From NCBI GenBank assembly GCA_003450815.1, contig DMES01000077.1, positions 17,681 to 81,680 on the forward strand: a DNA stretch of 64,000 nucleotides, read 5' to 3'. A program made the translations under genes and the position numbers. The DNA comes from Elusimicrobiota bacterium. Lineage in GTDB: Bacteria > Elusimicrobiota > Elusimicrobia > Elusimicrobiales > UBA9959. Below the pieces are notes generated by a model, which saw nothing but the letters and a program-made list of their open reading frames with translations, searched no databases and had not been told where the DNA came from. Every line of letters starts with the position of its first letter. Position 1 is the first letter of the stretch. Below are positions 5,335 to 60,563 of the stretch, piece after piece.

Positions 5335-5340
5335 GCGGAG

Positions 5341-5368
5341 GACACAAGTCACAGGTTGCAAGTTACAA
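5341..5368. repeat. 4 tandem heptamers (GACACAA GTCACAG GTTGCAA GTTACAA)
   Basis: Read directly in the parA-parB spacer. GTCACAR family. Confidence 0.8.
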
Positions 5369-8727: not shown

Positions 8728-8895
8728 TAAGTCACAAGTCTCAAGGCCATTTGTCGGCCATAGGCCTTGGTACGGCACTGCCATAGGCTTGTCACAGGTC
8801 ACAGGTTCAGGTAACAAAACACTGCTTCTATTCTCTAGCAAACCTTTTTGCCTACAGCCTAAAACATAAAACTTACTGCTTGTGACCTGTGACTC
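8728..8895. repeat. GTCACAR heptamer blocks in inverted orientation
   Basis: Forward units at 8728-8745 and 8791-8817; reverse units (CTTGTGA CCTGTGA) at 8872-8895. Confidence 0.75.
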
Positions 8896-9043
8896 GAGGC
8901 TTGCAACCGCTTTGTATAGCCTAGCACATCAACACGACAACCTCTTGTCGCGGTGTTTTTCCAAATTTTGTTCGTCTGGAAAAAATTTTGCCCTGCCGGC
9001 CGCATAAGAAAATACTCGTCCGCATATTTTCTGGGCCTGGGCC

Positions 9044-11229: not shown

Positions 11230-11266
11230 AGCTTAATTGCAATTTTCGGGTTTATTTATCTATATT

Positions 11267-14200
11267 ATGGATATGCCAGCCTCCGGCAATAATAAAACCG
11301 CCGCCCCGGCGCTTAAAAGCGACACGGAACTTGAATTTCCGCACGCTCTTTTAATAAGCGCCTCGGCCGGCTCGGGCAAAACATACACTCTCGCTCAGCG
11401 TTATGTCCAGTTTCTGCTTTCCGAAAATATCCCCGGCCACAACCTTGAAAATATTCTTGCTGTTACATTCACGAATAACGCCGCCAAAGAAATGAAAACC
11501 CGCATTTTGGAGTGGCTGAAAGAACTAGCACTAAACCCCGATTCCCCTAAAATGAACGAGACACTGCAGCTGGTGAACATAAGCCGCCCAGAGGCCCAAA
11601 AGAAAGCAACCGCGCTGGTAGAGAGCATAATAGACAATTATTCAGACTTTCATGTACAGACCATAGACAGTTTCATGACGCGCGTGATGACCGCCTCTGT
11701 GAACGAATTGGACCTTCCGCTGAACCCGGAAATCACCATGGCCTACAACGACCTTATTGAACTGGCCCTGTATTCCATGTTCTCGCACCTGGGGCATGAC
11801 GCTAACCTTAAAATCAATATAGATACTTTCCTTAATATTCTGCCGGAAAAAGGCGCGTATCCCTGGAATCCGGTCCTGCGCATAAGGGACCATTTTGCGG
11901 CTTTTCTTAACGAGGAAGGAAAAACCAAGGGCGGGATACTTTCCGATAACTCTGGCGCTCCCGGCAAGGCGCGAGAGAAACTCTGGGTGGATATCCTTAA
12001 ATCCTGCGGTGAGCTTAAGAAGCAAATCAAGCCCGAGCTTATGAAAGGCAGCCTGGCCGCCGCTATTGAAAATAAAGATATCAACGCCTTTATTTCAAAT
12101 TACAACTTTGAAAACTGGCTCCTAAACGGCCAGAAAAAGAGCCGCAAAACCGGCGAATTTCCCATCACACCGGAAACAAAAAAAGACTTGGAATATTTAA
12201 GCGAACTGGTGCGGCAATTGCTTATGGCGGACGCGTTAAGCTGGTTTCACCCGTATACTTTCATTTATTCCCGCTTCAAGGCCGAACTTGAGCGCGTAAA
12301 ACGCGGCAAAACAGACATCATCCACATAAACGATGTGAATAAAAAGCTTTCCACATACATAAACGCCAATGTCGCGCCTGACATTTACCTTAAACTGGGA
12401 GAACGGATAAACCATTACCTTATAGATGAGTTCCAGGACACCAATAAACTTCAGTGGGACAATTTCAAACCGCTCATAGAAGAATCCCTTGCCGGCGCTG
12501 GCTCGCTTTTTATGGTGGGCGATATCAAGCAGGCTATTTTCATGTTCCGCAACGCCGACTATAAGATAATGCGGGATCTGCTTACCTATGCCGAGGGCAA
12601 AAAGGATCATTGTGATAATTTAGAGCTTGCTTCGGTGGGCGGCAGGCTTGAACTTGTGAATCTGCCCGTTAACTACCGCAGCGGCGGAAAAATACTGGAG
12701 TATGTGAACGCCGTCTTCAAACATGACCTTAAAAACCGCAAAGAACTTATAGGAGAGGATATAACCGAACTTACCTCCTACGAGCAGGCCCCGCGAAAAG
12801 AGCGCGCAGCCGCCGGTTTTGTCCGGACTATTTCCCTTGAAGCCGATAATATAACCGAAGACCAGGTGGAGCGCGCTGAACTGCTGAAGATAATAGAAAG
12901 CGCCCGAAAACGCTATCCTTTAAATGAAATAGCCATTCTGGCCGCCAAAAACAAGCGCATAAAGCCTGTGGTGGAATGGCTTACCGCAGCAAATATTCCC
13001 GTGGCCTCGCTCAGCTCTCTGGACATACGGGAACGCCGGGTAACTGCAGAGCTGCTGGCGCTGTTAAAATTCCTGGAAACCCCGGCTGACGATTCCGCCT
13101 TTGTCGCTTTTATAACCGGCGAGATCTTCGGCAAGGCCGCAGGCGTTGCGCGCACGGAACTGCTGGAATTCATCTTTCAGGCACATACAGGTCACAAGTC
13201 ACAAGTCACAAGTCACAAGTTGCAGGGAATCTCTACCTCCTGCCAAAACATTTTATATACACAGTTCAAGGATCACCCTAAATATTCCGGATATTGGGAT
13301 CAATATTTTGACGAGCTTTTCCGCAAAACGGGATACTTGCCGCTATACGAGCTGTGCGCGCTTATTTATTCAAAGTTCGGGCTGTTTAAAAACTTTCCGG
13401 ATGAAGCCGCTTTTTTGTCTAAGTTCCTTAACATAGTTTCCAAAGCCCAGACGGACGGGATAACCGGCGTGCGAGATTTCCTGGACTTCGCCGAAGGGGA
13501 CGACGAAACCCGCGGAGCTGCTTTCTCCATAATCCTGCCGGATTATCTTGACGCGGCGCGTATTATGACTTTCCACAAAGCCAAGGGTCTCGGGTTCTCG
13601 GTGGTGATAAACCTAATCTATGAAGACCGGGACGCGGATGACTCCATGTACTTTGATGAAACTCCTGAAGGGATAAAGGTATATAAAATAACAAAGAGCG
13701 CTGCCGCCCAGCTTCCGGTGTTGGGCCGGATCTACAACAATAAAAAAACCGATGAGAGCGTGCAGAACCTCAACCTGTTGTATGTTATTGAAACCCGCGC
13801 CAAAGAAGAGCTTTACAACCTGGTAATCCGCAAAAAACGCAAGGAACCGTCCAAAACCGTCAAGTCCACCGACCTTTTTGACAATTACCAGTCCTCTGAA
13901 AAGGTGGCAACCACCTTTTCAGAGTCAACTACCACCGTCAAAAAGGTAGCTGATACCTTTTTGAAGCCGCTGGAGCCGGAACCGGTTTATAGCGCCAATT
14001 ATGATATCGCTACCGCTATTCCTACGCTTAACGCTTATGCCGGAGCAAAAGAAGGCGAGCTTTGCCACGATATTTTGGCCCGGATAGTGACAAGTCACAA
14101 GTCGGACACTTCTTCTGACTCTACACTCTCAACTTTACACTCTACACTATCATCACTCTATGCAGCTTGCGCCGCTTCGTATCCAATCAGATTTAATGAG

Positions 14201-14518
14201 GCTAAAATAATTAAAACCCTGTTCGCTTTCCTGACCATGCCGGAAGTTAAGCCCTGGTTTGAGCCCAAAGAAGGCCGCGTTATTAAAACAGAGGCTGAAT
14301 TTGCGGATAAAACTGGCAATATCTCCCGCGTGGACCGGCTTATAATAGACAAAGACACCGTCACAATAATAGATTTCAAAACCGGCGCGGAAGCCACGGA
14401 AAAATACGCCAAGCAGCTAAAACGCTATCTGGCGCTCGCCGCAGAAATATATAAACTGCCCGCAAAAGGCGTTATAGCGTATGTGGATTTGAGGAAGATT
14501 ATAGATATTCGCGCTTGA
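11267..14518 (+). CDS. UvrD/Rep-type helicase with C-terminal PD-(D/E)xK nuclease (AddA-like)
   Basis: Motif I SASAGSGKTYTL, motif II YLIDEFQDTN, and C-terminal nuclease RVDRLIID..IIDFKTG. The ORF track starts at TTG 11237; ATG 11267 is preferred. Confidence 0.85.
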   Translation: MDMPASGNNKTAAPALKSDTELEFPHALLISASAGSGKTYTLAQRYVQFLLSENIPGHNLENILAVTFTNNAAKEMKTRILEWLKELALNPDSPKMNETLQLVNISRPEAQKKATALVESIIDNYSDFHVQTIDSFMTRVMTASVNELDLPLNPEITMAYNDLIELALYSMFSHLGHDANLKINIDTFLNILPEKGAYPWNPVLRIRDHFAAFLNEEGKTKGGILSDNSGAPGKAREKLWVDILKSCGELKKQIKPELMKGSLAAAIENKDINAFISNYNFENWLLNGQKKSRKTGEFPITPETKKDLEYLSELVRQLLMADALSWFHPYTFIYSRFKAELERVKRGKTDIIHINDVNKKLSTYINANVAPDIYLKLGERINHYLIDEFQDTNKLQWDNFKPLIEESLAGAGSLFMVGDIKQAIFMFRNADYKIMRDLLTYAEGKKDHCDNLELASVGGRLELVNLPVNYRSGGKILEYVNAVFKHDLKNRKELIGEDITELTSYEQAPRKERAAAGFVRTISLEADNITEDQVERAELLKIIESARKRYPLNEIAILAAKNKRIKPVVEWLTAANIPVASLSSLDIRERRVTAELLALLKFLETPADDSAFVAFITGEIFGKAAGVARTELLEFIFQAHTGHKSQVTSHKLQGISTSCQNILYTQFKDHPKYSGYWDQYFDELFRKTGYLPLYELCALIYSKFGLFKNFPDEAAFLSKFLNIVSKAQTDGITGVRDFLDFAEGDDETRGAAFSIILPDYLDAARIMTFHKAKGLGFSVVINLIYEDRDADDSMYFDETPEGIKVYKITKSAAAQLPVLGRIYNNKKTDESVQNLNLLYVIETRAKEELYNLVIRKKRKEPSKTVKSTDLFDNYQSSEKVATTFSESTTTVKKVADTFLKPLEPEPVYSANYDIATAIPTLNAYAGAKEGELCHDILARIVTSHKSDTSSDSTLSTLHSTLSSLYAACAASYPIRFNEAKIIKTLFAFLTMPEVKPWFEPKEGRVIKTEAEFADKTGNISRVDRLIIDKDTVTIIDFKTGAEATEKYAKQLKRYLALAAEIYKLPAKGVIAYVDLRKIIDIRA
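13184..13225. repeat. 6 tandem heptamers (4 perfect GTCACAA) in frame inside the addA-like CDS
   Basis: 42 nt = 14 codons, encoding HTGHKSQVTSHKLQ. Confidence 0.85.
14088..14157. repeat. 7-nt-period block (GTGACAA GTCACAA ... TACACTC TCAACTT TACACTC TACACTA) inside the addA-like CDS
   Basis: Read directly. Encodes the low-complexity VTSHKSDTSSDSTLSTLHSTLSSL. Confidence 0.75.
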
Positions 14519-14861: not shown

Positions 14862-17800
14862 ATGCCAAAGCATTCGGGGTCTGCAAAGTTTACAGCAACA
14901 GGGGTTTTCAACGGCCTGAAAAGTTTTAGCGAACTTGAGGCCAGGATTTCCGCTCTGCCCTCCGAAAAAGAGCGTGGGGACGCTTTTGAGGTTTTTGCGG
15001 AGGCTTACCTAGCCACACAGCCTATATGCCAGGCGAAGGAAGTTTGGCCCCAGACCAGTGCCCCAAGCGGGCTGTTAAAACGCCTTGGCCTGCCGGTTTC
15101 CCGCGACATGGGGACGGACGGGCTTGTTGTACTAAAAGACGGTCGCATTGCTTCATACCAGGCTAAATTCTATACCAGCCGCCCAAGCCTTACCTGGGGT
15201 TTGCTGTCAACCTTTTTTGCCATCTCCGACCGGGTTTCACACACCATAATTTTCACAAATTCCGACAGCCTTGCTTCTACTATAGAGCAGAGGCAGAACT
15301 TTATCGCTATTCGCGGGATTGATTTAGACCGGCTTGCCCCCACTGACTTTTCGGTGATTGAAGAATGGATGAAAGGTGAGCCGGTAGCCAGGGTAATCCC
15401 AAAGCCGCGCCCGCACCAGGAGAAGGCTTTAAATGAACTGCTGCCAGCTTTGAAATCCTCTGACCGGGCCACTGTAATAATGGCCTGCGGCACCGGCAAA
15501 ACTCTTTTATCCCTCTGGGCTGCTGAGCGGCTGAAAGCTAAAAACGTTCTGGTGTTAGTGCCATCGCTCGCACTTATACAGCAGACCCTACACGGCTGGC
15601 TGGCCGCTACGGGCTGGGACAACCTTGCTTACCTCTGCGTCTGCTCGGACCTAACAATAACGGATGGTGTGGACGAACTGGTCGTTAAAAAGTCCGACCT
15701 TGATTTTGAGGTTACAACCGCCCCTGCCGAGGTTAAACGCTTTCTTGACAGTGTATTTGATGGGGTTAAAGTGGTTTTCTCAACCTATATGTCTGCCAGC
15801 GTGGTCGGTAAGGCACTTGAGGGCCGAAACATCTTTGACTTGGGCATATTCGACGAGGCACATAAAACCGCTGGCCGCGAGGGCAAAACCTATGCGTTCG
15901 CCCTCTCTGATAAAAATCTCCCGCTAAAAAAACGCGTATTCATGACCGCCACCCCCAGGCATTACAATGTTTTAAAGCGGGACAAAGAAGGTGACGCGAA
16001 ACTGGTCTATTCCATGGACGTGCCGGAATCTTATGGTACCGTAGTCCATAAACTCCCCTTTGCTGAGGCGGCCCGCGCCGGAATTATCTGTCGTTACAAG
16101 GTAATAATTTCCGTAGTAACCTCCGAGATGGTCGGGCAGGAACTTTTAAGGCGGGGCAAAGTCCTTGTAGCGGGTGACGAAATTCACGCCCAGCAGGTGG
16201 CAAACCAGCTGGCACTCGCCGCCGCCGTGGAGAAGCACGGAGTCGGCAAAATAATCACCTTCCATAAAAACATCAAATCCGCGCAGTCCTTTACCGACGC
16301 CGGTCCGGAAGGCATAGCCAATCATCTAAAAGATTTCTCCGTCTTCCACGTAAACGGCTCAATGCCCTCCGCCGAACGCGAAAAGCTGATGGGAGAATTT
16401 AAAACCTCCAAGCACGGCCTTGTCTCCAACGCCAAATGTCTGACCGAAGGCGTAGACGTTCCGGCAGTGGATATGGTCGCCTTCCTAAGCCCCAAACGCA
16501 GCACGGTGGACATCGTACAGGCAACCGGCCGCGCCATGCGTAAAGCCCCCAAAAAAGAATTCGGTTACATCTTGGTTCCGCTCTATCTGGAAATTAAAAA
16601 TAATGAAGCCATAGAAGAAGCCGTCCGCCGAGGCAACTTTGAAGAAGTCTGGGACGTCCTAGCCGCCCTACAGGAACAGGACGAAGTCCTAGCCGACATA
16701 ATCCGCCAAATGCGTCAGGAAAAAGGCCGCACCAAAGGCTACAACGACGTCCCCTTCCGTGAACAAATAGAAATCCTCGGCCCACAAATTTTACTAGAAG
16801 ACTTAAAAAAATCAATCATAATCTCCTGTGTTGACAGGCTTGCCGCTAATTGGGACGAGCGCTTCGGAGAATTGGTCGCATATAAAGCCAAATATAGCGA
16901 TTGTAATGTGCCAAGGGGATGGCCTAAAAATCCGAGTTTGGCTAGATGGGTTGCAATGCAGCGAAGTCTTAAGATTAAAGGACGACTATTAAAGGAGCGA
17001 GTAAATCAGCTAACTGCGATTGGGTTTGACTGGGATCCGCAAGCGTCAGCTTGGGAAGATAGCTTTCGCGCCCTTGAGCAGTATAAGGCTAAACATGGTG
17101 ATTGCGATGTGCCAAATAGATGGATTGAAAATCCGAGTTTGGCTAGATGGGTTGGAATGCAGCGAAGTCTTAAGATTAAAGGACGACTATTAAAGGAGCG
17201 AGTAAATCAGCTAACTGCGATTGGGTTTAACTGGGATCCGCAAGCGTCAGCTTGGGAAGAAGGCTTTTGTGCCCTTGAGCAGTATAAAGCTAAACATGGT
17301 GATTGTAATGTTTCACATGCGTGGCCCCAAAATTTAGGTTTAGCCACGTGGGTTTCAACGCAGCGAACAGCCAAGATTAAGGAGCAATTATCCAAAGATA
17401 GAGAAAATCGTCTGACAAAGATTGGTTTTGAATGGAACAGGTTGGTGTCAGCCTGGGAAGAAAATTTTCATGCCCTCGAAGACTATCAAGGTACGTATGG
17501 CGATTGTAATGTACCAAAGATGTGGCCTGAGAATCCGAATTTGGCCACCTGGGTTGTAATGCAACGAAGTCTTAAAATTAAAGGGCAACTATCAAAGGAG
17601 CGAGTAAATCGGTTAACTGCGATTAAGTTTGATTGGGATCCGCTAGGGTCAGTTTGGGAAGAAAGTTTCCGCGTCCTTGAGCAGTATCAGGCTAAACATG
17701 GTGATTGCAATGTGTCACAGGAATGGCCTGAAAATCCAAGTTTGGGTAGGTGGGTTTCAAGACAACGAGAAGCCAAGATTAATGGGCAGCTATCAAAGGA

Positions 17801-18323
17801 GCGAGTAAATCGGTTAACTGCGCTTAGGTTTGACTGGGATCCGCAGGTGTCAACCTGGGAAAACAGTTTTTGCGCTCTTGAGAAGTATAAAAATAAACAT
17901 GGTGATTGCAATGTGCCACAGGGATGGACTGAACCTCCGGGTTTGGGTAGGTGGGTTTCGAATCAACGACGCTATAAGATTAAAGGGAAAATATCAAAGG
18001 AACGAGTAAATCGGCTAATCGCGATTGGATTTGACTGGGATCCGATGCTCTCGGCCTGGGAAAAAAGTTTTCGCGCCCTTGCACAGTATAAAGCTACACA
18101 TGGTGATTGCAATGTGCCACAGGATCGGCCTGAAGATCCGAGTTTGGGTAGATGGGTTGCAACGCAACGAAAAGTTAAGATTAAAGGGCAAATATCAAAG
18201 GAACGAGTAAGCCGGCTAACTGCGCTTGGGTTTGAATGGCATAGGACGAAGGAACGCCTGCCCCGCAACAGGAGTATAGGTGACAAAAACCAAGCAAAGC
18301 TGCTAAAAACGGATGAACATTAA
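14862..18323 (+). CDS. fusion protein: restriction-endonuclease-like N-terminus + SF2 (DEAH, Res-subunit-like) helicase + 7 helicase-associated (HA) repeats
   Basis: N-terminus GDAFEVFAEAYL..GTDGLV..YQAKF (PD-(D/E)xK-like). Helicase motifs MACGTGKT, DEAH, TATP and QATGRAMR. C-terminal 7 x 67-aa W(E)xxF..YK..HGDCNVP..W..NP.L..WV..QR repeats. Confidence 0.85.
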   Translation: MPKHSGSAKFTATGVFNGLKSFSELEARISALPSEKERGDAFEVFAEAYLATQPICQAKEVWPQTSAPSGLLKRLGLPVSRDMGTDGLVVLKDGRIASYQAKFYTSRPSLTWGLLSTFFAISDRVSHTIIFTNSDSLASTIEQRQNFIAIRGIDLDRLAPTDFSVIEEWMKGEPVARVIPKPRPHQEKALNELLPALKSSDRATVIMACGTGKTLLSLWAAERLKAKNVLVLVPSLALIQQTLHGWLAATGWDNLAYLCVCSDLTITDGVDELVVKKSDLDFEVTTAPAEVKRFLDSVFDGVKVVFSTYMSASVVGKALEGRNIFDLGIFDEAHKTAGREGKTYAFALSDKNLPLKKRVFMTATPRHYNVLKRDKEGDAKLVYSMDVPESYGTVVHKLPFAEAARAGIICRYKVIISVVTSEMVGQELLRRGKVLVAGDEIHAQQVANQLALAAAVEKHGVGKIITFHKNIKSAQSFTDAGPEGIANHLKDFSVFHVNGSMPSAEREKLMGEFKTSKHGLVSNAKCLTEGVDVPAVDMVAFLSPKRSTVDIVQATGRAMRKAPKKEFGYILVPLYLEIKNNEAIEEAVRRGNFEEVWDVLAALQEQDEVLADIIRQMRQEKGRTKGYNDVPFREQIEILGPQILLEDLKKSIIISCVDRLAANWDERFGELVAYKAKYSDCNVPRGWPKNPSLARWVAMQRSLKIKGRLLKERVNQLTAIGFDWDPQASAWEDSFRALEQYKAKHGDCDVPNRWIENPSLARWVGMQRSLKIKGRLLKERVNQLTAIGFNWDPQASAWEEGFCALEQYKAKHGDCNVSHAWPQNLGLATWVSTQRTAKIKEQLSKDRENRLTKIGFEWNRLVSAWEENFHALEDYQGTYGDCNVPKMWPENPNLATWVVMQRSLKIKGQLSKERVNRLTAIKFDWDPLGSVWEESFRVLEQYQAKHGDCNVSQEWPENPSLGRWVSRQREAKINGQLSKERVNRLTALRFDWDPQVSTWENSFCALEKYKNKHGDCNVPQGWTEPPGLGRWVSNQRRYKIKGKISKERVNRLIAIGFDWDPMLSAWEKSFRALAQYKATHGDCNVPQDRPEDPSLGRWVATQRKVKIKGQISKERVSRLTALGFEWHRTKERLPRNRSIGDKNQAKLLKTDEH
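16851..18257 (+). repeat. 7 tandem 201-nt coding repeats (HA domains)
   Basis: The conserved Trp codons are spaced exactly 201 nt apart. 16927-17059 vs 17128-17260 differ at only 2 of 133 nt. Confidence 0.9.
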
Positions 18324-28579: not shown

Positions 28580-28600
28580 ACGTCCGCCTGAGGCGGACGG

Positions 28601-28668
28601 GAGTTATGAGTTTTAAGTTATGAGTTCTAAATTTTCCCTGACTCATAACTTATAATTCATAACTCAAA
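28601..28668. repeat. inverted array of rAGTTnT heptamers
   Basis: GAGTTAT GAGTTTT AAGTTAT GAGTTCT AAATTTT / ACTCATA ACTTATA ATTCATA ACTCAAA. Preceded by the small hairpin CGTCCGCC-tga-GGCGGACG (28581-28599). Confidence 0.85.
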
Positions 28669-28683
28669 ACTGTTAAGGAACAT

Positions 28684-32740: not shown

Positions 32741-33156
32741 TGGAAATAAGGCGCATTAATGATAATGAGAAAGGCCTGAAGAGCTGGATTAAAGAATTGA
32801 CCGGCAAGCCGGCCGATCTCCTTGTACCTACCGCTAAATTTCAGCACGCATATTTTGGGGCGTTTATGGACGGGAAAATGATAGGATTTTCCGTTGTTCT
32901 TACATCCGGCAAGTGGATACTGGATGCTTTATTCGTTCATCCGGATCACAGGGGCAAAGGGATAGCCGGGAAATTGACCGAGGTCAGGATAGATTTCGCT
33001 AAACAAAACGGAGCCAGAGAAATATGGTACTGCTGTAGCGACCGTAATACCGCCAGCCTGCTCTCGCATAAAGGTTATAAATTCGCTAAAGTAAAAAAAG
33101 CCGCGCCCGAAGAGGCGCCTGAACCGTCACATTGGCATAAAATGGATATAACGTGA
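32741..33156 (+). CDS. GNAT-family N-acetyltransferase
   Basis: HPDHRGKGIAGKL acetyl-CoA site. The ORF-track N-terminal extension (32641-32740) runs across terminator-like repeats. Confidence 0.7.
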
Positions 33157-36122
33157 AGATGGAAATAATCGCTCCAAGTGACAATCTGATTGAAAAAACA
33201 GGAAAGATTCTGCTTGATTCTGGGAATCTGGCGGATTATATTGTTGTCTTCCCGGGCAAGCGGCCGGCGCATTTTCTGCGTAAATATTTGGCCGACAAGC
33301 TCAACGCCGCCTTTGAACCGCCCCTTATTCTTTCCATGGACGGATTCATAAACCACCTGGCGGAATCGGTGGACATAAAAGGCGCGGAACTTTCGAACCT
33401 TGACGCCGTCGGCATACTCTACGATCATATGCTCAACGACCTTGCCGGCGTTATAGGCAAAACCGGCGATATCTCATTGGACACATTCCTTCCCTGGGGA
33501 TTTAAGATATTTTCTGATTTTGAAGAGCTCAAGATAGAGCTTAAAGCGCCAAAGGAACTGAAAGACTTCGATTCCATTCTGCCGGGCGAAATTAAAGGTT
33601 CGAATGAGTTCATTAAAAAGCTAAAAAACTTCTCAGGAGTGTATGAACGCTTCTATACCCATCTTGAGCATAAAAACCTGCTGAGCCGGTCACGTAAATA
33701 CGCCCTGGCAGCTGAAAAGACACAGGACATGGACCTTAATGGCAAGAAAATAATTCTTGCCGGTTTCTTTGCTCTGACCGCATCTGAAAAGAAAATTTTT
33801 ACAGCCCTGTCCAAACTGCCCGGCTCTGTTATACTACTACAGGAAGGACCGGGCCTTCAGGAGCAATTCCAGTTCCTGGAATCGCGGTCACAAGTCACAG
33901 GTCACAAGTCACAGGATACAAGTCTCAGGTCACAGGTCACAAGTCACAAGCCAGAAAACACAGGTCCCAGAGCGGAAACCGCGCTGCATTTTTATAAAGC
34001 GCCGGATTTACACGGTGAGATATTTAAACTTGCGGAGATTTTAAAAGGCCGGACGCTGACCTCAAAAGACGTTGTGGTCCTGCCTTCTTCGGACGCGCTG
34101 TTTCCGGCGCTGTTCAATGTGCTGGGAGAGGTGAAAGAATATAACATTTCAATGGGCTACCCGATAACCGCCACCCCTGTCTATTCGCTTATAGATTCCC
34201 TCGGCGATCTGCTGGAAAAACGCTCTGATGACCAATATTTTACGCCCAATTACCTCAAATTTGTTTTTCATCCATATGTAAAGAATATCCACATGCAAGT
34301 CACATGTCACAATCCTCTGGAGGTGCCGTCTCAAATGGCCTCTGGCCCACAAACGGCCAAGTCACAGGTCACAAGTGAGAAGGCACAGGAGATAAATCAT
34401 AAATCAGAAACCGCGGGCGGCAGATCAAGCGAACCGACACGTATTATTTTTCAGACCATTGAAACTGAACTTGCCTCAAAAATAAACAAATTCCTCACTC
34501 TTGAAGATCTGGAAAACGATACCGCCTTGTTTGAGCGCTGTTCCGTCCTGCTAAAAAATCACGCCAATCTGCCGCACACCGCGGACAACATACAGACGCA
34601 TATTAAAAACATCCACAATAAGCTCATCCGCCCGTTTGAGGCGGTGGAGAAACTCACGATAAAGACTTTCGCCGATAAACTTATCGCCATGGTTTCGTTT
34701 ATTTCTGAGCACAGCACCGCGAACCTCCACCCCTATTCCGCGCCATTCATCGAACAACTTTACGAAGAACTGCACGCCTTCTCAAACTCAACGCTTTCCG
34801 GACGCTGTCTTGAAAACATTTCCTCCTACTTCAAATTGCTCAAGTCCTATATAAAAGGCTCCGCATACCCGTTTGCAGGCACGCCGCTGTCCGGCCTGCA
34901 GGTGCTGGGCTTTCTTGAAACCCGCAACCTTAAATTTGAACGCGTATATTTTCTGGACGCCAACGCCGACATCCTGCCCGGCTCAAAAAAGGAAGACACC
35001 ATACTTTCACACTTTATCCGCCGGGGCCTCGGCCTGCCCACTTATAAAATACGCGACTCGGTGGCAAAATATTACTTCAACCTGCTTCTCTCCCAGGCTG
35101 ACGAGGCACATATTTTCTACAAAGACGCGCCGGAGCTTGAAAAAAGCCCGTTCGTTCAGAAATTTATCTGGAACCTGGAGGCCGCCGGGCAAAAACCAAA
35201 AGAAGAAGAGGTGCATTTCCGGCTTAACTTTGTGCAGCCGGAGCCGGGCCCTATCGCCAAAACAAAAGACACGCTGGCATACCTTGGCAATTTCACCTTC
35301 TCTCCGTCAAACCTTGATGCCTATCTCGTCTGCGGCCTGAAATTCTACTACCAGTATGTGCTACGCATACAGGAAAAAGATGAGGTGGGCGATGAAATAG
35401 GCCAGGCTGAAATAGGCGCCATAGTGCATGAGATCCTGGAGCGCCTGTTCATGGAACACAAACCGGGAATAGATCTGACGCTTGAGCGCGCGAATGAAAT
35501 AGCCGCGGGAATATTTGACGCCGGACTTAAAAACCACGATTCAGGCTATGAGTACCTTATAAAAAAGCAGATACTGCGCCGCCTGCGCGACATCCTGCTG
35601 TATCACAAGGAAAGCGTAGGGAAAGTGCGGATAAAAAGCTGTGAAAAAAAATTCAGTCTTACGCTGGATGGTGTTAAATTCAGCGGCAGGGCTGACCGCA
35701 TAGACCTCCGCCCGGACGCGAAAGGCCTCAACACCCATGTGATAGTAGATTATAAAACCGGTTCAACCGCCGCAACGCCCAATCTAAAGAAATTCGACCT
35801 TGAAGACCGCGAGGCCTGGCCCAAAACCCTTAAGTCGGTGCAGTTACCCCTGTATGTAATGTTTTATTTGGCTGAAAACCCGGAAATTGCCCTTGAGACC
35901 GTGGATGCCTGTCTTATGCTGTTGGGTTCCCATAAAATCAGCGAAAAATTTCTGTTTGAAATTAGCGAAGATAAAGCCGCAGACCTTGCCAAACTGCGCA
36001 AGGCCGTTTCTTATCTGGTTTACGAAATCCGCTCCCCGGAACTGGATTTTGAACCCGCCTCCGATACAAAAACCTGCGAACTCTGCCACTTCAAAACAAT
36101 GTGCGGCCGCCAGTGGGTGTAA
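33153..36122 (+). CDS. PD-(D/E)xK nuclease family protein with C-terminal Fe-S Cys pattern (AddB-like)
   Basis: RADRIDL..VIVDYKTGS nuclease motif. Cys at CGLKFYY plus CELCHFKTMC matches the AddB-type iron-staple pattern. No Walker A seen. Confidence 0.75.
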   Translation: MKMEIIAPSDNLIEKTGKILLDSGNLADYIVVFPGKRPAHFLRKYLADKLNAAFEPPLILSMDGFINHLAESVDIKGAELSNLDAVGILYDHMLNDLAGVIGKTGDISLDTFLPWGFKIFSDFEELKIELKAPKELKDFDSILPGEIKGSNEFIKKLKNFSGVYERFYTHLEHKNLLSRSRKYALAAEKTQDMDLNGKKIILAGFFALTASEKKIFTALSKLPGSVILLQEGPGLQEQFQFLESRSQVTGHKSQDTSLRSQVTSHKPENTGPRAETALHFYKAPDLHGEIFKLAEILKGRTLTSKDVVVLPSSDALFPALFNVLGEVKEYNISMGYPITATPVYSLIDSLGDLLEKRSDDQYFTPNYLKFVFHPYVKNIHMQVTCHNPLEVPSQMASGPQTAKSQVTSEKAQEINHKSETAGGRSSEPTRIIFQTIETELASKINKFLTLEDLENDTALFERCSVLLKNHANLPHTADNIQTHIKNIHNKLIRPFEAVEKLTIKTFADKLIAMVSFISEHSTANLHPYSAPFIEQLYEELHAFSNSTLSGRCLENISSYFKLLKSYIKGSAYPFAGTPLSGLQVLGFLETRNLKFERVYFLDANADILPGSKKEDTILSHFIRRGLGLPTYKIRDSVAKYYFNLLLSQADEAHIFYKDAPELEKSPFVQKFIWNLEAAGQKPKEEEVHFRLNFVQPEPGPIAKTKDTLAYLGNFTFSPSNLDAYLVCGLKFYYQYVLRIQEKDEVGDEIGQAEIGAIVHEILERLFMEHKPGIDLTLERANEIAAGIFDAGLKNHDSGYEYLIKKQILRRLRDILLYHKESVGKVRIKSCEKKFSLTLDGVKFSGRADRIDLRPDAKGLNTHVIVDYKTGSTAATPNLKKFDLEDREAWPKTLKSVQLPLYVMFYLAENPEIALETVDACLMLLGSHKISEKFLFEISEDKAADLAKLRKAVSYLVYEIRSPELDFEPASDTKTCELCHFKTMCGRQWV
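33887..33949. repeat. 9 tandem GTCACAR-type heptamers in frame inside the addB-like CDS
   Basis: 63 nt = 21 codons, encoding SQVTGHKSQDTSLRSQVTSHK. Confidence 0.85.
34292..34409. repeat. two further heptamer blocks inside the addB-like CDS
   Basis: CATGCAA GTCACAT GTCACAA (34292-34312) and GTCACAG GTCACAA GTGAGAA GGCACAG GAGATAA ATCATAA ATCAGAA (34361-34409). Confidence 0.75.
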
Positions 36123-37507: not shown

Positions 37508-38266
37508 ATGCCTGAAGACAGACTCGCGCGCATAAGGTTGATGGTGGGAGAGGCCGGGATTGACCGCCTTAAAAACTCTTTTGTTGTGGTGGCGGGACTC
37601 GGCGCGGTGGGCAGTTATGCCGTGGAAGGCCTGGCCCGGGCTGGCATAGGCCGCCTGCGGCTTGTGGACTTTGACATCATAAAGGCCAGTAATATAAACC
37701 GCCAGCTTTACGCCTTGGGCTCTACCATAGGCAGGCATAAGGCCGACATAGCCGCCGCCCGGGTGCTGGACATTAATCCGGATTGCCGCGTGGAGCCGCT
37801 CAAGATTTTCGCCGCAGCCGAAAGTTTTGACGCTATACTCGCAGACGCTCCCGACATGGTGATAGACGCCATAGACGCCCTGGGCCCCAAAACCGAACTT
37901 ATAGCGGAAACGCAAAAAAGAGGGCTGAGGCTTATCTCCTGCATGGGCGCGGCCCTGCGCACAGACCCCTCCGCCATACGCGTAGGCCCCTTTTCAGAAG
38001 CGCGCGGCTGCCCCCTCGCCACCCGGCTGAGGTATTGGCTCAGGAAAAAGAACTCGCCGGCACAGTTCACCTGTATTTACTCCATCGAGCCTTTGGGCCG
38101 ACTGCGCCTGGAGGCACGGCAGACCGCAGAACCTGAAAAAGATTATTATGACCGAGGCCGCCGGAGGGCGGCTTTGGGCAGTCTGCCCACAGTTACGGGG
38201 ATTTTTGGCCTTACAATAGCCAATACTGTGATACAAACGCTGCTTGCAGACAGGCTTAAGGCTTAA
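37508..38266 (+). CDS. tcdA: tRNA threonylcarbamoyladenosine dehydratase (ThiF/TcdA family)
   Basis: VVVAGLGAVGSYAVEGLARAGIGRLRLVDFD..NINRQ. Confidence 0.8.
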   Translation: MPEDRLARIRLMVGEAGIDRLKNSFVVVAGLGAVGSYAVEGLARAGIGRLRLVDFDIIKASNINRQLYALGSTIGRHKADIAAARVLDINPDCRVEPLKIFAAAESFDAILADAPDMVIDAIDALGPKTELIAETQKRGLRLISCMGAALRTDPSAIRVGPFSEARGCPLATRLRYWLRKKNSPAQFTCIYSIEPLGRLRLEARQTAEPEKDYYDRGRRRAALGSLPTVTGIFGLTIANTVIQTLLADRLKA

Positions 38267-38421
38267 TGCTGAAGAATGCAAGTCGGATCAGGAATAGAGC
38301 TGCACCAACAGATTGTCTCCAGCTTATGGTTTTCCGCCTTTTAGCACCCAACCGCTTTTTACGACTCACCCGGTATCCTTCAGCCCGCAGTCTTCAGCCT
38401 TAAGTCTTTTTTAGCCGCCCC

Positions 38422-38449: not shown

Positions 38450-38475
38450 ATGTTAGAAGATTGCAACTACTCAGA

Positions 38476-38604
38476 CAGCCAGGAGTCGGGAGTTAGAAGT
38501 CAGTAGTCGGAATTTAGGAGCCAGGAATCCGATAGATATCATAGACTTATCCGCATCCGCTATTCTGGATTCTGACTACTGAATTCCGACTTCCAGCTAT
38601 GTGG
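38476..38604. repeat. inverted array of 7-nt units (CAGTAGT/CGGAATT family)
   Basis: Left arm 38476-38530, right arm 38561-38604. Lies in the predicted 5' leader of the C11 peptidase gene. Confidence 0.8.
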
Positions 38605-38714
38605 CCCGCGACTAATTCCGCCTCAAACCCTTAGGTCCAAGGGCCTATTGCCACATGGGACTTAGGACCATTGATAAAAGTCAAACCATGAACAAGAATA
38701 TCTTAGAGGCAGTT

Positions 38715-42950: not shown

Positions 42951-42995
42951 GTTTAAGGGTATAGGGTAGAGGGAATAGGGGCTAGGGTTAAGGAG
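42951..42995. repeat. tandem nnAGGGn heptamers
   Basis: TAAGGGT ATAGGGT AGAGGGA ATAGGGG CTAGGGT TAAGGAG. Confidence 0.8.
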
Positions 42996-43030
42996 ATCCT
43001 TAATATCCGCATCCACAACCTTAAGGCGGG

Positions 43031-44239: not shown

Positions 44240-44306
44240 GGATTCCTCATACTACTATTGTAGTAAATTGACCGCCGTTCTTCAATGCGGCGCGGAGCGC
44301 GCCGCA

Positions 44307-44437
44307 GTCACAAGTTGCAAGTCACAGGTCACAAGTAAGAAAAACTGAGGATTTTGAATTATTGCGGCCGGAACCGACAAGCGGCCCGTCTTTTGTCTTA
44401 CCTCTTCACTTGTGACCTGTGACCTGTGACTTGTGAC
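44307..44437. repeat. inverted GTCACAR heptamer arrays
   Basis: Left arm 44307-44341, right arm 44404-44437 (CTTCACT TGTGACC TGTGACC TGTGACT TGTGACT). The right arm is the 3' end of the rfaE2 CDS. Adjacent GC hairpin GCGGCGCG-gag-CGCGCCGC (44287-44305). Confidence 0.85.
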
Positions 44438-44912
44438 TAGAAAGATGGCCTTTAGCCAGCTTTCGAATAATGCCCGTGGTGGAACGGCCTTCCACAAGCG
44501 GTATTCTTACTGTTCGCCCTGCGAACCCGGCACCGACTATTTCGGAGGCTTTATAGTCGGCTCCTTTAACCAGGATGTCCGGTTTAAGTGTTTTAATCAG
44601 TGCAAAAGGGGTATCGGAGCTGAAAATAACCACAGCGTCAACGGCGGCAAGCGCCGCAAGCACTCTTGCGCGGTCTTTTTGACAGTTTACCGGGCGGCTG
44701 GAGCCCTTAAGACGCTTAACGGAGGAATCGGAATTAACACCAAGAAACAAAAAATCACCCAGAGAGCGGGCTTTTTCCAACAGGGCTATATGCCCCGCGT
44801 GCAGTATATCAAAACAGCCGTTGGTGAAAACGGCTGTTTTACCCTTTTGAGAGAGCGCGCGGCGCAACACCAAAGCTTTTTTGAGCGAAACCAGCTTGTT
44901 GTTTGTGTCCAT
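44406..44912 (-). CDS. rfaE2: D-glycero-beta-D-manno-heptose 1-phosphate adenylyltransferase (RfaE domain II)
   Basis: Cytidylyltransferase motif FTNGCFDILHAGH. The C-terminal tail HLSSHKSQVTGHK is encoded by the heptamer repeat. Confidence 0.85.
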   Translation of the reverse strand: MDTNNKLVSLKKALVLRRALSQKGKTAVFTNGCFDILHAGHIALLEKARSLGDFLFLGVNSDSSVKRLKGSSRPVNCQKDRARVLAALAAVDAVVIFSSDTPFALIKTLKPDILVKGADYKASEIVGAGFAGRTVRIPLVEGRSTTGIIRKLAKGHLSSHKSQVTGHK

Positions 44913-44918
44913 AAACGA

Positions 44919-45016
44919 CAGTAGACAGAATACAGTAGTTAGAATTCAGAAGTAAGATTTAAACTGTTTTCCGACTTCTGAATTCTGGCTTCTGACTTCT
45001 GTATTCCGACTTCAGG
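44919..45016. repeat. inverted array, AGTAGAC AGAATWC AGTAGTY AGAATTC family
   Basis: Left arm 44919-44956, right arm 44971-45016. The left arm is about 85-90 percent identical to those at 48207 and 56075 (by eye). Confidence 0.85.
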
Positions 45017-45036
45017 CTATCTAAATAGCTACCACC

Positions 45037-46398: not shown

Positions 46399-46414
46399 TG
46401 AACCCTCCAAAATT

Positions 46415-46521
46415 AAGTTGAGAGTTAAAGAGTTTGGGAGTTTTAGCGTTTAGAATTATGAGTTTAAGAGTCGGTGCTCTTCAAACTCCTTAACTCCCAA
46501 ACTCTCAACTCCTAAACTCCC
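46415..46521. repeat. inverted array of GAGTTnnn units (period 7-8)
   Basis: Left arm 46415-46470, right arm 46478-46521 (AACTCC repeats). Confidence 0.8.
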
Positions 46522-48188
46522 TACTTCTGCTCGTCCGAACCGGGAACCGGCTGCCGGCTTTTTTCAATCTTTGCGCTCGCGGTCCAAAGATTCACATTGA
46601 AAACCATAATATCCCTGATCTCCTTGGTTTTAGTTCCCGGTTTAAGGGATTCTTCCCTTAAAACAACCCTGTACTCGGGCCCGGAGATATGCGCGGCGAG
46701 CCAGGAATCCTTCGGCAGAAATTTAGCTTTTTGGTGGCCGAGCTTGGCTGTTAAAGCCGACAACGCGCGCCAGCGCGACTCAATAATCGAGGTTTGGTTG
46801 GGGGACAGGCGCAAGTGCTGCGCAAAAGCTATGGCCTCCGGCTTCGCGTCGCCGTTTAAAAACCGCAGACGCACCGCTGTTTCCTTTTTATTCCCTTCTC
46901 CTTCGCATACCATTCCCGCCTTCATGGCGTCGTCCAGAGCATTTTCGTATTTTTTCAACCTTACAAAGGCGTCGGCGCGGCTTATGTATATGGGGCATTG
47001 CTCTTTTGGTAAAAGCCGGGTATCGTCAAGCAGAGCGTCATATTCCTTTATGGCCGGCTCAAGTTTATCAAGAAAGCGCAGGCTTTCTGCGTAGTAGAAC
47101 CTGTACCAGAAAATTTCCGCCGGCGAAAAACCGACCGGATAAGTTTTTGCCGTGGCTAAAGTCTCCCCGCAGGATTCCTCCGATTTATCATAAATTTTCA
47201 TAAAAAACTCGGAAACGCATAAATAACCCGAGGCCCTGGGGTCAATAGGGTCTGTAAGGTAAAGCTTTTGCGCCAGAAACAGCGCCAGGGGATAGTCCTG
47301 CCGGGCCAGGGCCGAGTCTATAGGCTCAAAAAGCGTCCAGATATAGGGCCTGGCCCATTTGCCGTTTTCCCTAACAAAGGAAATATAATCAGGCTGACAG
47401 GCCGTGCCATTTTCACACAGCTGGTATTTCACCATGGCGCCGGTCTTGCCTATCGAAAACACTTCTATGTCCTTAAACTCCCAACGCGGAGATTGCGCAT
47501 AATATTCCTTGCTGCGCTTTACATATTCTTCCGCAGAACAGACCACTTTGGAATTTGTAGACAGCAGATCATAGGCCTCGCGGTAGCGGCCATTTGAAAG
47601 CTTTTCAAGATATCCGGCGGCCGCACGCTTGAGCATGAAGCCGGGAAGGCCTGGTGCCAGCAGCAAATAGGCCGCCATAAATGCGACCAGGGTAATTATA
47701 AGCCCAAGCATGACGGGTTGATATTTTTTAACAAGCGGGGGAACTTCCACGGAGACTGTCCGTGCAGTTTTATCCTCCGGCGCTGGTGGAGCGGCGGGGT
47801 GCGTTTTGGAGATTTCGGCTTTTTTAAGGTTTCTGTAGGAGATATCCCTTTCGTTTACCGTGTCCTGTATGGGCTGTATTTCCAGCTGCTGGCCGGCGGA
47901 GAATCGCGGATTATTGCGGTCTTCTTTAGCTCGTATGTTCTTCTGCTCCGTGAAAAAAAGTTTTTTCGCTTCTGGCGCTGCACCGTCTTCAGACTCTTGC
48001 GCGGCCGCCGGTTTCATCACAAAAAGACCGCCGCACTGATCGCAGTAATTCTTTTCAACCGCATTGGAAAAACCGCAGATCCCGCAAAGCTTTTCAAGCT
48101 TCGTATTGCATTGAATGCAGGTGTCGGTAAGTATATTGGGTTCGAAACCACACCGGGGGCACCGTATAACAGAGAGGTTTGGAGGCAT
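46521..48188 (-). CDS. membrane protein with N-terminal double zinc-ribbon
   Basis: CPRCG..CIQCN..CGICG..CDQCG, then one TM segment (VMLGLIITLVAFMAAYLLL) and a large C-terminal domain. ATG 48188 preferred over the ORF-track TTG 48206. Confidence 0.6.
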   Translation of the reverse strand: MPPNLSVIRCPRCGFEPNILTDTCIQCNTKLEKLCGICGFSNAVEKNYCDQCGGLFVMKPAAAQESEDGAAPEAKKLFFTEQKNIRAKEDRNNPRFSAGQQLEIQPIQDTVNERDISYRNLKKAEISKTHPAAPPAPEDKTARTVSVEVPPLVKKYQPVMLGLIITLVAFMAAYLLLAPGLPGFMLKRAAAGYLEKLSNGRYREAYDLLSTNSKVVCSAEEYVKRSKEYYAQSPRWEFKDIEVFSIGKTGAMVKYQLCENGTACQPDYISFVRENGKWARPYIWTLFEPIDSALARQDYPLALFLAQKLYLTDPIDPRASGYLCVSEFFMKIYDKSEESCGETLATAKTYPVGFSPAEIFWYRFYYAESLRFLDKLEPAIKEYDALLDDTRLLPKEQCPIYISRADAFVRLKKYENALDDAMKAGMVCEGEGNKKETAVRLRFLNGDAKPEAIAFAQHLRLSPNQTSIIESRWRALSALTAKLGHQKAKFLPKDSWLAAHISGPEYRVVLREESLKPGTKTKEIRDIMVFNVNLWTASAKIEKSRQPVPGSDEQK

Positions 48189-48206
48189 ATCTAAGTTACT
48201 GCCCAA

Positions 48207-48341
48207 GTAGACAGAATTCAGTAGTCAGAATTCTGAACTGGTGGTTACCTGCATTACCCTTCTTCAGCCTTCAAGGTCCTTGGCGAGATTAAATGTGTCT
48301 TGGTTTTTCTACTGACTTCTGAATTCTGACTCCTGGCTTCT
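48207..48341. repeat. inverted array, AGTAGAC AGAATTC AGTAGTC AGAATTC family
   Basis: Left arm 48207-48240, right arm 48310-48341. Confidence 0.85.
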
Positions 48342-48371
48342 TAAGTGGTTATATCAATTGTAATTTTCGGT

Positions 48372-48749: not shown

Positions 48750-48763
48750 TATACCTCCATAAA

Positions 48764-48844
48764 CCAGGGTGTAGGGTATAGGGTTCAGGGTTTAGGGGAA
48801 GGAATAACTTGAATCCTATACCCTATACCCTGTTACCCTTCTCC
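48764..48844. repeat. inverted array of AGGGTnn heptamers
   Basis: AGGGTGT AGGGTAT AGGGTTC AGGGTTT / CCTATAC CCTATAC CCTGTTA. Confidence 0.85.
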
Positions 48845-49296
48845 TAAAGCCCCGCTTCCGAAGGGTTGAAGGGCTTGGGCAGCAGTCTGGCGGCTTTCGT
48901 ATAGGTTATCTTCTCTTTCTTTTCAAGCGGCTGCCAATCAACAAAAATCATTTCCGCGTCCTTGCACGCGAATTCAATTATCACCTGCCGGCAGGCTCCG
49001 CAAGGTTTGGCCGATTTAGCTACCAGGGCAAGCGCCCTGATCTTTTTTTCTCCGTGGCTGACCGCGTTGAAAATAGCGGTCCGCTCTGCGCAGCAGGCCA
49101 AGCCGAAAGAAGCATTTTCCACATTGCAGCCGGTGTACGTTCTCCCCGATTCCATGAGCACCGCGGCGCCGACCGGATAGCGGGAATAAGGGCAATAGGC
49201 GTTTTTTTGCGCGGTTTTGGCGGCGGCTACCAGTTTTTTCCTCACGGCGACAAGCCAGGTTTTGCGGGCCGGTTTTTTGTGCGCAACTCTTTTCAT
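48844..49296 (-). CDS. cdd: cytidine deaminase
   Basis: Zinc ligand motifs CAERTAI and PCGACRQ. Confidence 0.9.
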   Translation of the reverse strand: MKRVAHKKPARKTWLVAVRKKLVAAAKTAQKNAYCPYSRYPVGAAVLMESGRTYTGCNVENASFGLACCAERTAIFNAVSHGEKKIRALALVAKSAKPCGACRQVIIEFACKDAEMIFVDWQPLEKKEKITYTKAARLLPKPFNPSEAGL

Positions 49297-56057: not shown

Positions 56058-56074
56058 TTATGGTACTATAATAA

Positions 56075-56215
56075 GTAGATAGAATTCAGCAGTCAGAATT
56101 CAGAATAGCGGAGTTTTTATCGTTGCCGGCATTTTCATTCTGACTAGCCTATGGCTGTGCCGTAACAAACGCTATGCGTATAAGACGGCCTCCTGAATTC
56201 TGACTTCTGACTACC
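56075..56215. repeat. inverted array, AGTAGAT AGAATTC AGCAGTC AGAATTC family
   Basis: Left arm 56075-56112, right arm 56192-56215. Confidence 0.85.
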
Positions 56216-56232
56216 TGGGCGGCAACTAAATT

Positions 56233-60346: not shown

Positions 60347-60530
60347 GCTATTTACGGAAAATCGCCTTTAAAAGCGATTACAGGGACAAAGTACCCATGA
60401 GTGAATGGGTCCAAATACCCTGGATACCGCAGGCCCTGCCGGATATACTATATTCACAATCCTACTGTAATTTGGCGGATTTTTCAGGCGCCAAAGTATC
60501 TACGACCCGGCCTTAACCGGGTGTATCCAG

Positions 60531-60563
60531 GGGAAGCGGAATCAAAAACGCTTTCCCTTTTTT
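60531..60563 (+). terminator. intrinsic terminator-like hairpin
   Basis: GGGAAGCG..CGCTTTCCC followed by TTTTTT. Confidence 0.55.

Follow-up and report, generated by a model that had tools for sequence, protein, structure and literature searches.

The 64,000-nt stretch of DNA analysed here (the window; C58:17681-81680 of G000, the 2.79-Mb, 94%-complete assembly of an uncultured Elusimicrobiota bacterium in 86 contigs) is interspersed with hairpins whose arms are runs of tandem 7-nt units, inverted on the far side of a loop. These elements probably belong, as members without a gene, to a class of palindromic cassettes that carry genes for the 23S rRNA intervening sequence (IVS) protein, hereafter IVP (PF05635/TIGR02436). 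In its full form such a cassette would consist of 3-8 tandem heptamers, a small TIGR02436/PF05635 gene for a four-helix-bundle protein and the same heptamers inverted, and the short form would keep both arms around a short, fast-evolving loop. The window elements can be termed only gene-less relatives of IVS-type cassettes; there is no PF05635 gene in the window, and the 7 copies of the genome sit on other contigs.

Heptamer arms around IVS protein genes

The association between heptamers and IVP genes is reproducible and controlled. All 7 PF05635 genes of this genome are flanked by inverted arms of tandem words, each gene with its own unit. Among these units, ATAGGGT (contig C26), AGTCAGA (C54) and GAGTTAT (C17) are also families of the window, and GGTTCAC (C28) is another; in the sister genome G002, arms of GTCACAA exactly enclose a PF05635 gene. 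Phylum-wide, over 29 genomes, inverted flanks were found at 23 of 29 IVP loci, against 2/29 for reversed and 3/55 for displaced controls. The same holds across lineages. The 80 best relatives of one IVP were collected from species-representative genomes of bacteria and archaea; 64 of their loci had full flanks, and 50 of these carry inverted arms compared with 3/64 in the control. Where arms are clearly periodic (35 cases), the period is 7 in 33. Among the hosts are Bacteroidota, Chloroflexota, Acidobacteriota, Planctomycetota, Verrucomicrobiota, the candidate phyla radiation (CPR) and methanogen-related archaea.

IVP homologues also occur in 32 of 72,556 plasmid records, 28 of them cyanobacterial by organism name and 14 of these Nostoc. 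The flanks of 12 cyanobacterial plasmid copies were inspected. Inverted heptamer arrays enclose 10 of them, with the units AGGGTGT (Calothrix), GGGAGTA, GGGAACA, AGGGAAG, GGTGACA and AGTCAGA/AGTCAGG, and direct arrays flank one. On two unrelated plasmids, pANA02 of Anabaena sp. 90 and pPg_01 of Pseudanabaena galeata, PF05635 genes with heptamer flanks lie between cas6 and cas4 of a CRISPR-Cas locus; the flanks on pPg_01 are long direct (AAAGCTA)n / (AAAGCCA)n arrays, not inverted ones. When 100-kb samples were picked without regard to IVP genes, six IVP-bearing genomes yielded 13, 12, 0, 7, 11 and 12 period-7 arrays and four genomes lacking IVP genes yielded 0, 0, 0 and 0, a weak comparison because those four come from one family.

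At the sequence level, the heptamer unit was shown to co-vary with the IVP subfamily, even across phyla. Protein identity and unit distance are correlated among 33 cassettes (Mantel test with a Spearman coefficient of -0.36, a strength that none of 2000 permutations equalled). Arms of AGTCAGA enclose the IVP gene on contig C54, and its product shows 68-69% identity with the three Nostocales IVPs whose units are AGTCAGA/AGTCAGG; its identity with cyanobacterial IVPs that have other arm units is no higher than 49%. Since unconstrained non-coding DNA is judged to be randomised at such a protein divergence, the unit would be constrained in step with the protein subfamily. The genes themselves are under purifying selection (dN/dS 0.06-0.07). 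NCBIfam lists IVP (TIGR02436) as a 'four helix bundle protein', and there is weak similarity to Avd, a protein of diversity-generating retroelements (DGRs). The crystal structures of the homologues 2GSC (X. campestris) and 2RLD contain five chains each, and an IVP of this genome matches the pentameric XCC0516 of X. campestris (PDB 2GSC) with an E value of 2e-22.

Heptamer arrays across the genome and between relatives

The sequence-only reading that preceded this analysis had described tandem 7-nt intergenic elements as pervasive and divided into several families, and both points hold. Tandem Repeats Finder called period-7 (or 14/21) arrays at all the sites it had named, and the lag-7 census that it had proposed revealed a genome-wide excess of period 7. 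With one scoring rule and identical thresholds, the lag-p score gave 328 arrays at lag 7 over the whole genome, against 6, 22, 68, 26, 12 and 17 at lags 5, 6, 8, 9, 10 and 11, so that period 7 exceeds every other tested period about 5-50-fold. More than ten unit families occur in this one genome, the largest by array count being GTCACAA (78), ATAGGGT (51), AAGGCTG (25), AGTCAGA (19) and AGGGGAT (12). Runs of GGG are confined to the AGGGTnn/AGGGGAT families, and the GTCACAA, AGTCAGA and GAGTTAT units have none. Rfam holds no family matching the heptamer hairpins. The arrays are not assembly artefacts, a concern that the sequence-only reading had raised. Their unit families turn up on numerous contigs, and again in 6 related genomes as well as in finished plasmids of cyanobacteria. 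The assembly contains 59 N-runs (44-314 nt) dispersed over its contigs.

On a crude longest-open-reading-frame map with approximate start positions, 174 of the 328 arrays are wholly intergenic and 60 lie at stop codons, although the genome is 88% coding. A reverse-complement partner was found at most 450 nt away for 182 arrays (55%), compared with 9 in a reversed, non-complemented control, and inverted pairing concerns 68% of the intergenic arrays but 17% of those in mid-gene. Arms have a median of 4.3 units. The paired arrays form 134 hairpins with a median length of 92 nt, and an independent scan of spacers detected 126 (99 of period 7, 27 of period 8, at most 3 of any other period); these genome totals are lower bounds, because the strict hairpin detector recovers just 4 of the ~10 hairpins of the window. 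The topology is constant with one exception: of 37 strict pairs, 36 have their purine-rich array as the 5' arm, which independent local slippage would not predict.

The orthologous spacers, whose comparison had likewise been proposed, differ in unit family and in the presence or absence of an element, and relatives include an empty site at rfaE2. The genomes compared are kin, mostly metagenome-assembled, with Elusimicrobia/Elusimicrobiaceae names among them. The elements were shown to be gained, lost and replaced quickly between sister genomes, the arms being conserved while the loops drift. The block cdd-accB-DZR-accC-rfaE2-aminotransferase (DZR, double zinc ribbon) is syntenic in five relatives. 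Across five genomes the unit in its cdd-accB spacer is AGGGTAT, AGGGGCT, GGTAACC, none and AAGGATG; the rfaE2-accC spacer, occupied at 44919-45016 of the window, has different families in G001, G002 and G004 and no element in G011 and G006. Between this genome and G001, seven spacers differ in unit family and three show presence or absence. The spacer of 28601-28668 carries an AGCGAAT-type element in G001 in place of GAGTTAT, and an in-frame site in addB holds GTCACAA x9 here and a CCAGCCT-type array there. Matches to a GTCACAA x3 pattern number 45 in this genome, 24 in G002 and 2 in G001.

Members of a family have no loop sequence in common except apical palindromes, which are short, and a nested module of 42-46 nt that is a separate repeat; long loops are unique in the genome. 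Six GTCACAA hairpins have a right arm more than 90% identical, including the module at a constant position, and loops that cannot be aligned. Unit order is shuffled between orthologous arms of this genome and G002. In the aminotransferase/response-regulator spacer on contig C13 of G002, an extra gene of ~1.1 kb, missing in this genome and in G001, lies between CCATAGG-type and AGGGT-type hairpins.

The rfaE2-like gene encodes a cytidylyltransferase of 168 aa (44406-44912, minus strand), and at its end an insertion of ~152 nt (44288-44439) replaces the last codons and the stop codon. It consists of a GC-rich mini-hairpin (44287-44305) beside a GTCACAA-family hairpin (44306-44438) in which a 75-nt loop separates four to five GTCACAR units from their inverted counterparts; the fold of 44300-44445 reaches -63.3 kcal/mol (z -7.8). 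Across genomes, an insert of ~150-170 nt replaces the last RfaE2 codons in this genome and G002, the three outgroups are without it, and G001 has an empty site (...TTTCCAAACCG|CATTGAAGAAC...). The element is an insertion that brought its own loop. Directly downstream of it lies a promoter-like sequence, TTGAAG-17-TACAAT (44257-44285, minus strand). This sequence is conserved in G001 and G002, and the ancestral stop codon of rfaE2 (cat-TGA-ag) falls inside it.

Placement and competing explanations

The placement of the elements was assessed on 100 hairpins whose neighbouring genes are co-directional. Their stems begin at a median of 4 nt past the upstream stop codon and end at a median of 18 nt ahead of the next start, the element occupying 82% of the spacer; the stop codon is inside the hairpin in 28%, and some hairpins extend across it, so that the upstream protein gains a repeat-encoded tail. 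Such very stable stems right after stop codons, one of them (44306-44438) just upstream of the conserved promoter-like sequence, might be rho-independent terminators or attenuators delimiting transcription units, a role that the sequence-only reading had entertained. We consider this very improbable. At least 6 T in the 10 nt after the stem were found in 8 of 96 cases on the sense side, compared with 14/96 on the antisense side; flanking genes are co-directional at 75% of hairpins against a background of 74%, convergent pairs are not in excess, and no hairpin overlaps a terminator-like site of the scan. Because U-tracts are lacking, orientation equals the background and terminator-like sites do not coincide, the hairpins are best described as intercistronic elements rather than classical terminators. 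The roles in RNA processing or stability that the sequence-only reading had also named may apply. Most of them moreover lie within conserved operon-like runs such as cdd-accB-DZR-accC-rfaE2, and relatives of this run have hairpin-free spacers of 16-27 nt.

It also seems unlikely that the arrays are ordinary long simple-sequence repeats grown in place, their inverted pairs being kept as messenger stabilisers or translation-coupling hairpins similar to repetitive extragenic palindromic (REP) sequences, with PF05635 genes merely landing or persisting there. Slippage has been held responsible for the widespread excess of heptamer repeats (cited in PMC4692102, PMC4679880), and several features agree with such an origin: unit order is shuffled in G000 and G002 arms, the elements fit closely between stop codon and ribosome-binding site, as functional REPs do, and most relatives have the same spacers occupied despite different sequences, which fits selection for some hairpin there. 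The rfaE2 element, however, came as one block, non-repeat loop included, with sharp borders against the empty site, and arms consist of variant units in imperfect tandem, unlike pure microsatellites. Slippage accounts poorly for the constant 5' position of the purine-rich arm, for the same unit families at dozens of loci, matching the arms of PF05635 genes, and for the lack of period-7 arrays in the sampled genomes without IVP genes; nor would local slippage predict a unit retained with the protein subfamily across phyla. Mobilisation by known transposases is hardly credible. The genome has six Y1_Tnp genes, and short palindromes at gene ends recall REPINs (REP doublets forming hairpins), Correia elements and miniature transposable elements with inverted repeats (MITEs), as if REP/REPIN-type sequences were moved by IS200-like Y1 transposases resembling RAYTs (REP-associated tyrosine transposases), or MITEs by a DDE transposase. 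Yet no heptamer array or hairpin lies within 600 nt of any of these six genes, and 5 of the 6 are flanked by a different hairpin, ACGACA-N-TGTCGT. The hallmarks of MITEs are lacking among the heptamer elements, whose internal sequences are not conserved among copies and which display no consistent target-site duplication, and their arm sequences are many and unrelated while the period is constant. Retro-mobility was rejected, its sole trace being a reverse-transcriptase fragment at a contig end, as were integron attC sites, the flanking genes being syntenic housekeeping genes with no attC-like core.

The relationship with IVP cassettes, which we favour, suggests a mechanism. Gene-less hairpins would descend from such cassettes or depend on them. 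Each IVP, a pentamer in homologue crystals, would recognise its own tandem heptamers, ~4-5 per arm, as DNA or RNA, and would thereby maintain or spread its own cassette together with the matching gene-less hairpins in trans. When transcribed in an operon mRNA, the stem would be cut by RNase III as in 23S IVSs, and the insert would then be tolerated and would incidentally affect processing or stability; single arms that lie in frame within genes would be leftovers tolerated in linkers. An RNase III gene was found in this genome, and the 23S gene is absent from this assembly. On a broader scale, and with slightly less than even confidence, we propose that STRR-type repeats (short tandemly repeated repetitive sequences) of cyanobacteria, Xanthomonas, Elusimicrobiota and many other bacteria and archaea may be footprints of one ancient class of selfish elements. 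Its oligomeric four-helix-bundle PF05635 protein, a relative of Avd, would recognise the heptamers flanking its own gene by a subfamily-specific heptamer 'code'; gene-less hairpins would be non-autonomous satellites, and 23S IVSs copies landed in rRNA hairpins.

Several results weigh against the descent from, or dependence on, IVP cassettes. No cognate IVP gene was found in the 94%-complete assembly for GTCACAA, the most abundant family, and G076 has IVP genes and 0 period-7 arrays in its 100-kb sample. None of 37 gene-less long elements (two intact cassettes excluded) retains an IVP remnant, so that the inferred descent by internal deletion relies solely on units and topology held in common and, in the AGGGT family, on the apical palindrome TAAGGAnnTCCTTA. 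At rfaE2, the one resolved empty site, no clear target-site duplication is seen beyond a weak CGCA hint in G002, and near-identical copies that would indicate recent transposition were not seen among the heptamer elements. Unit and protein could co-vary through co-inheritance combined with another constraint on the arms rather than through direct recognition, and counts across genomes are not independent because the compared genomes are related. Finally, a test of strand asymmetry based on G-U pairs gave no significant difference between sense and antisense folding (51 vs 42, p=0.11), and an RNA role and a DNA role of the hairpins are therefore not yet separated.

Known repeat systems and the elements of the window

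Heptamer repeats of the STRR type were first described around 1990 and serve as typing markers; the original description reportedly already includes several unit families per genome. The structure of the IVS protein has been solved, and we know of no function for it. Of the STRR-like character that the sequence-only reading had attributed to the window elements, the dispersed, multi-family arms forming long imperfect hairpins at gene junctions stand. The inverted, multi-family layout, which it had presented as unknown, was already published: Xanthomonas carries 70-75 convergent pairs of GGGAATC arrays per genome (Rehm et al. 2015, PMC4692102), and in cyanobacteria STRR hairpins of unknown function lie between the co-transcribed hupS and hupL (PMC2670836). 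The present elements thus represent a new host lineage for a known kind of repeat. With STRRs they share tandem 7-nt units in several families per genome, a dispersed and mostly intergenic distribution and hairpins between co-transcribed genes. Some units are literally the same, AGTCAGA/AGTCAGG and AGGGTGT arms flanking IVP genes on Nostocales and Calothrix plasmids. They differ in that STRRs were originally defined for heterocystous cyanobacteria, not an uncultured Elusimicrobiota bacterium, and in the large share of intergenic arrays (68%) paired here as inverted arms.

Xanthomonas heptamer repeats are 89-93% intergenic, nearer the upstream reading frame and mostly of ~4 units (PMC4692102). 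As here, convergent pairs lie near the 3' end of the upstream reading frame, and closely related species differ in the length and sequence of the repeats; a PF05635 homologue, XCC0516, is encoded by X. campestris too. One dominant G-rich unit, read as G-quadruplex-forming, prevails there, whereas this genome has many, mostly non-G-rich families. Beggiatoaceae possess direct TAACTGA arrays (PMC4679880). According to the title of a 1997 paper (Vioque, cited in PMC2858038), the RNase P RNA gene of heterocystous cyanobacteria contains STRRs, which would parallel the insertion of IVSs into rRNA genes.

In the 23S IVSs of Coxiella and Leptospira, a long terminal stem likewise encloses a PF05635 reading frame. 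Heptamers of GACAGAT, in strain-dependent number, are present in the Coxiella stem, and RNase III cuts this stem at the first repeat; the IVS is regarded as a selfish element that RNase III excises (PMC4990558). These IVSs reside in helix 45 of 23S rRNA (class sites helix 9/25/45), whereas the elements described here occupy mRNA spacers, gene ends and coding sequence, and the window copies are gene-less. REP sequences and bacterial interspersed mosaic elements (BIMEs), Correia repeat enclosed elements (CREEs) and Rickettsia palindromic elements are comparable as short co-transcribed palindromes in operons right after stop codons; Correia elements are cut by RNase III, and Rickettsia palindromic elements occur in frame inside genes too. 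In those families, however, a full-length consensus is conserved, with a RAYT as partner of REPs, while the heptamer elements have only periodic arms in common, their loops are unique and the associated gene encodes a four-helix-bundle protein.

In the literature searched, no paper connects STRR-type repeats with PF05635 proteins and none deals with heptamer repeats in Elusimicrobia. The association between repeats and IVP gives two old unexplained things one testable hypothesis, namely that protein and repeat form a sequence-specific pair. The hairpins fill operon spacers, rewrite C-termini (RfaE2) and add peptide linkers to AddA and AddB, and they probably fragment the assemblies of such genomes.

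Within the window, at least 11 sites had been credited with two opposed arms by the sequence-only reading; genuine two-armed hairpins were confirmed at nine, and the remaining two bear a single arm with fold z about 0. One of these is a GTCACAR array of ~3 units at 5340-5363, without an inverted partner (z -0.4), and the other an AGGGTnn arm at 42951-43003 with the apical palindrome TTAAGGAGATCCTTAA and a degenerate opposite arm (z 0.2). At six sites the stem energy was not reached by any shuffle. Besides the rfaE2 insertion (44300-44445), these are the GAGTTAT-family hairpin at 28601-28668, whose unit is that of the PF05635 cassette arms on contig C17 (fold of 28596-28675, -32.6 kcal/mol, z -8.2), the AGTCGGA/AGTCAGA-family hairpin at 38476-38604 (38470-38610, -57.2 kcal/mol, z -5.7), the AGTCAGA/AGAATTC-family hairpin between rfaE2 and accC at 44919-45016 (44915-45020, -33.6 kcal/mol, z -5.0), the GAGTTnT hairpin at 46415-46521, with a period of 7-8, that separates accC from the double-zinc-ribbon gene (46411-46524, -41.6 kcal/mol, z -5.4), and the AGTCAGA-family hairpin at 56075-56215, with a 43-nt module nested in its loop at 56148-56190 (56070-56218, z -3.3).

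The arms also pair in the AGTCAGA/AGAATTC-family hairpin with a long unique loop at 48207-48341 (fold of 48204-48345) and in the AGGGTnn-family hairpin between accB and cdd at 48764-48844 (48760-48846), with z of only about -1.8 to -2.0 against composition-matched shuffles. The GTCACAA-family hairpin at 8728-8895 has one arm split by a nested 42-nt module at 8746-8787, and this composite of arm and module is more than 90% identical at six loci. Tandem Repeats Finder and the spacer scan added a period-7 hairpin of AGGCTTA / CTTCAGC type at 38258-38408, which shares a 386-nt spacer with the hairpin at 38476-38604. As had been noted before, one heptamer element stands at each end of rfaE2, and hairpins are also present on either side of accC and accB. 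The earlier description of the arrays as intergenic applies to most of them but not to two in-frame arrays on the plus strand, a GTCACAA array at 13184-13225 within an AddA-like helicase-nuclease gene (11237-14518) and a 9-unit GTCACAR array at 33887-33950 within an AddB-like gene (33153-36122).

The nested module belongs to a separate 42-46-nt repeat with the consensus CCTATGGC[ACT]GTGCCGTA..GGSCTATGSCC..CAGACGGCC, present in 35 copies at no more than 2 mismatches. In addition to 8746-8787 and 56148-56190 of the window, it is found at G000:C58:150159-150297, beyond the window, and at ~30 other sites; it is at times in tandem (3 copies) and often nested at a constant position in GTCACAA arms or hairpin loops. 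A second palindromic repeat system, unrelated to the heptamer hairpins, is represented in the window by a REP-like hairpin of the ACGACA-N-TGTCGT type, CAACACGACAACCTCTTGTCGCGGTG, at 8928-8955. A 2dG-II purine riboswitch aptamer (RF03165) was detected at 60460-60535 on the plus strand with 61.7 bits, slightly above the gathering score. A 201-nt tandem repeat (6.8 copies, 76% matches) extends over 16881-18239, within an open reading frame of 1153 aa (14862-18323), in which it corresponds to protein repeats of ~67 aa.

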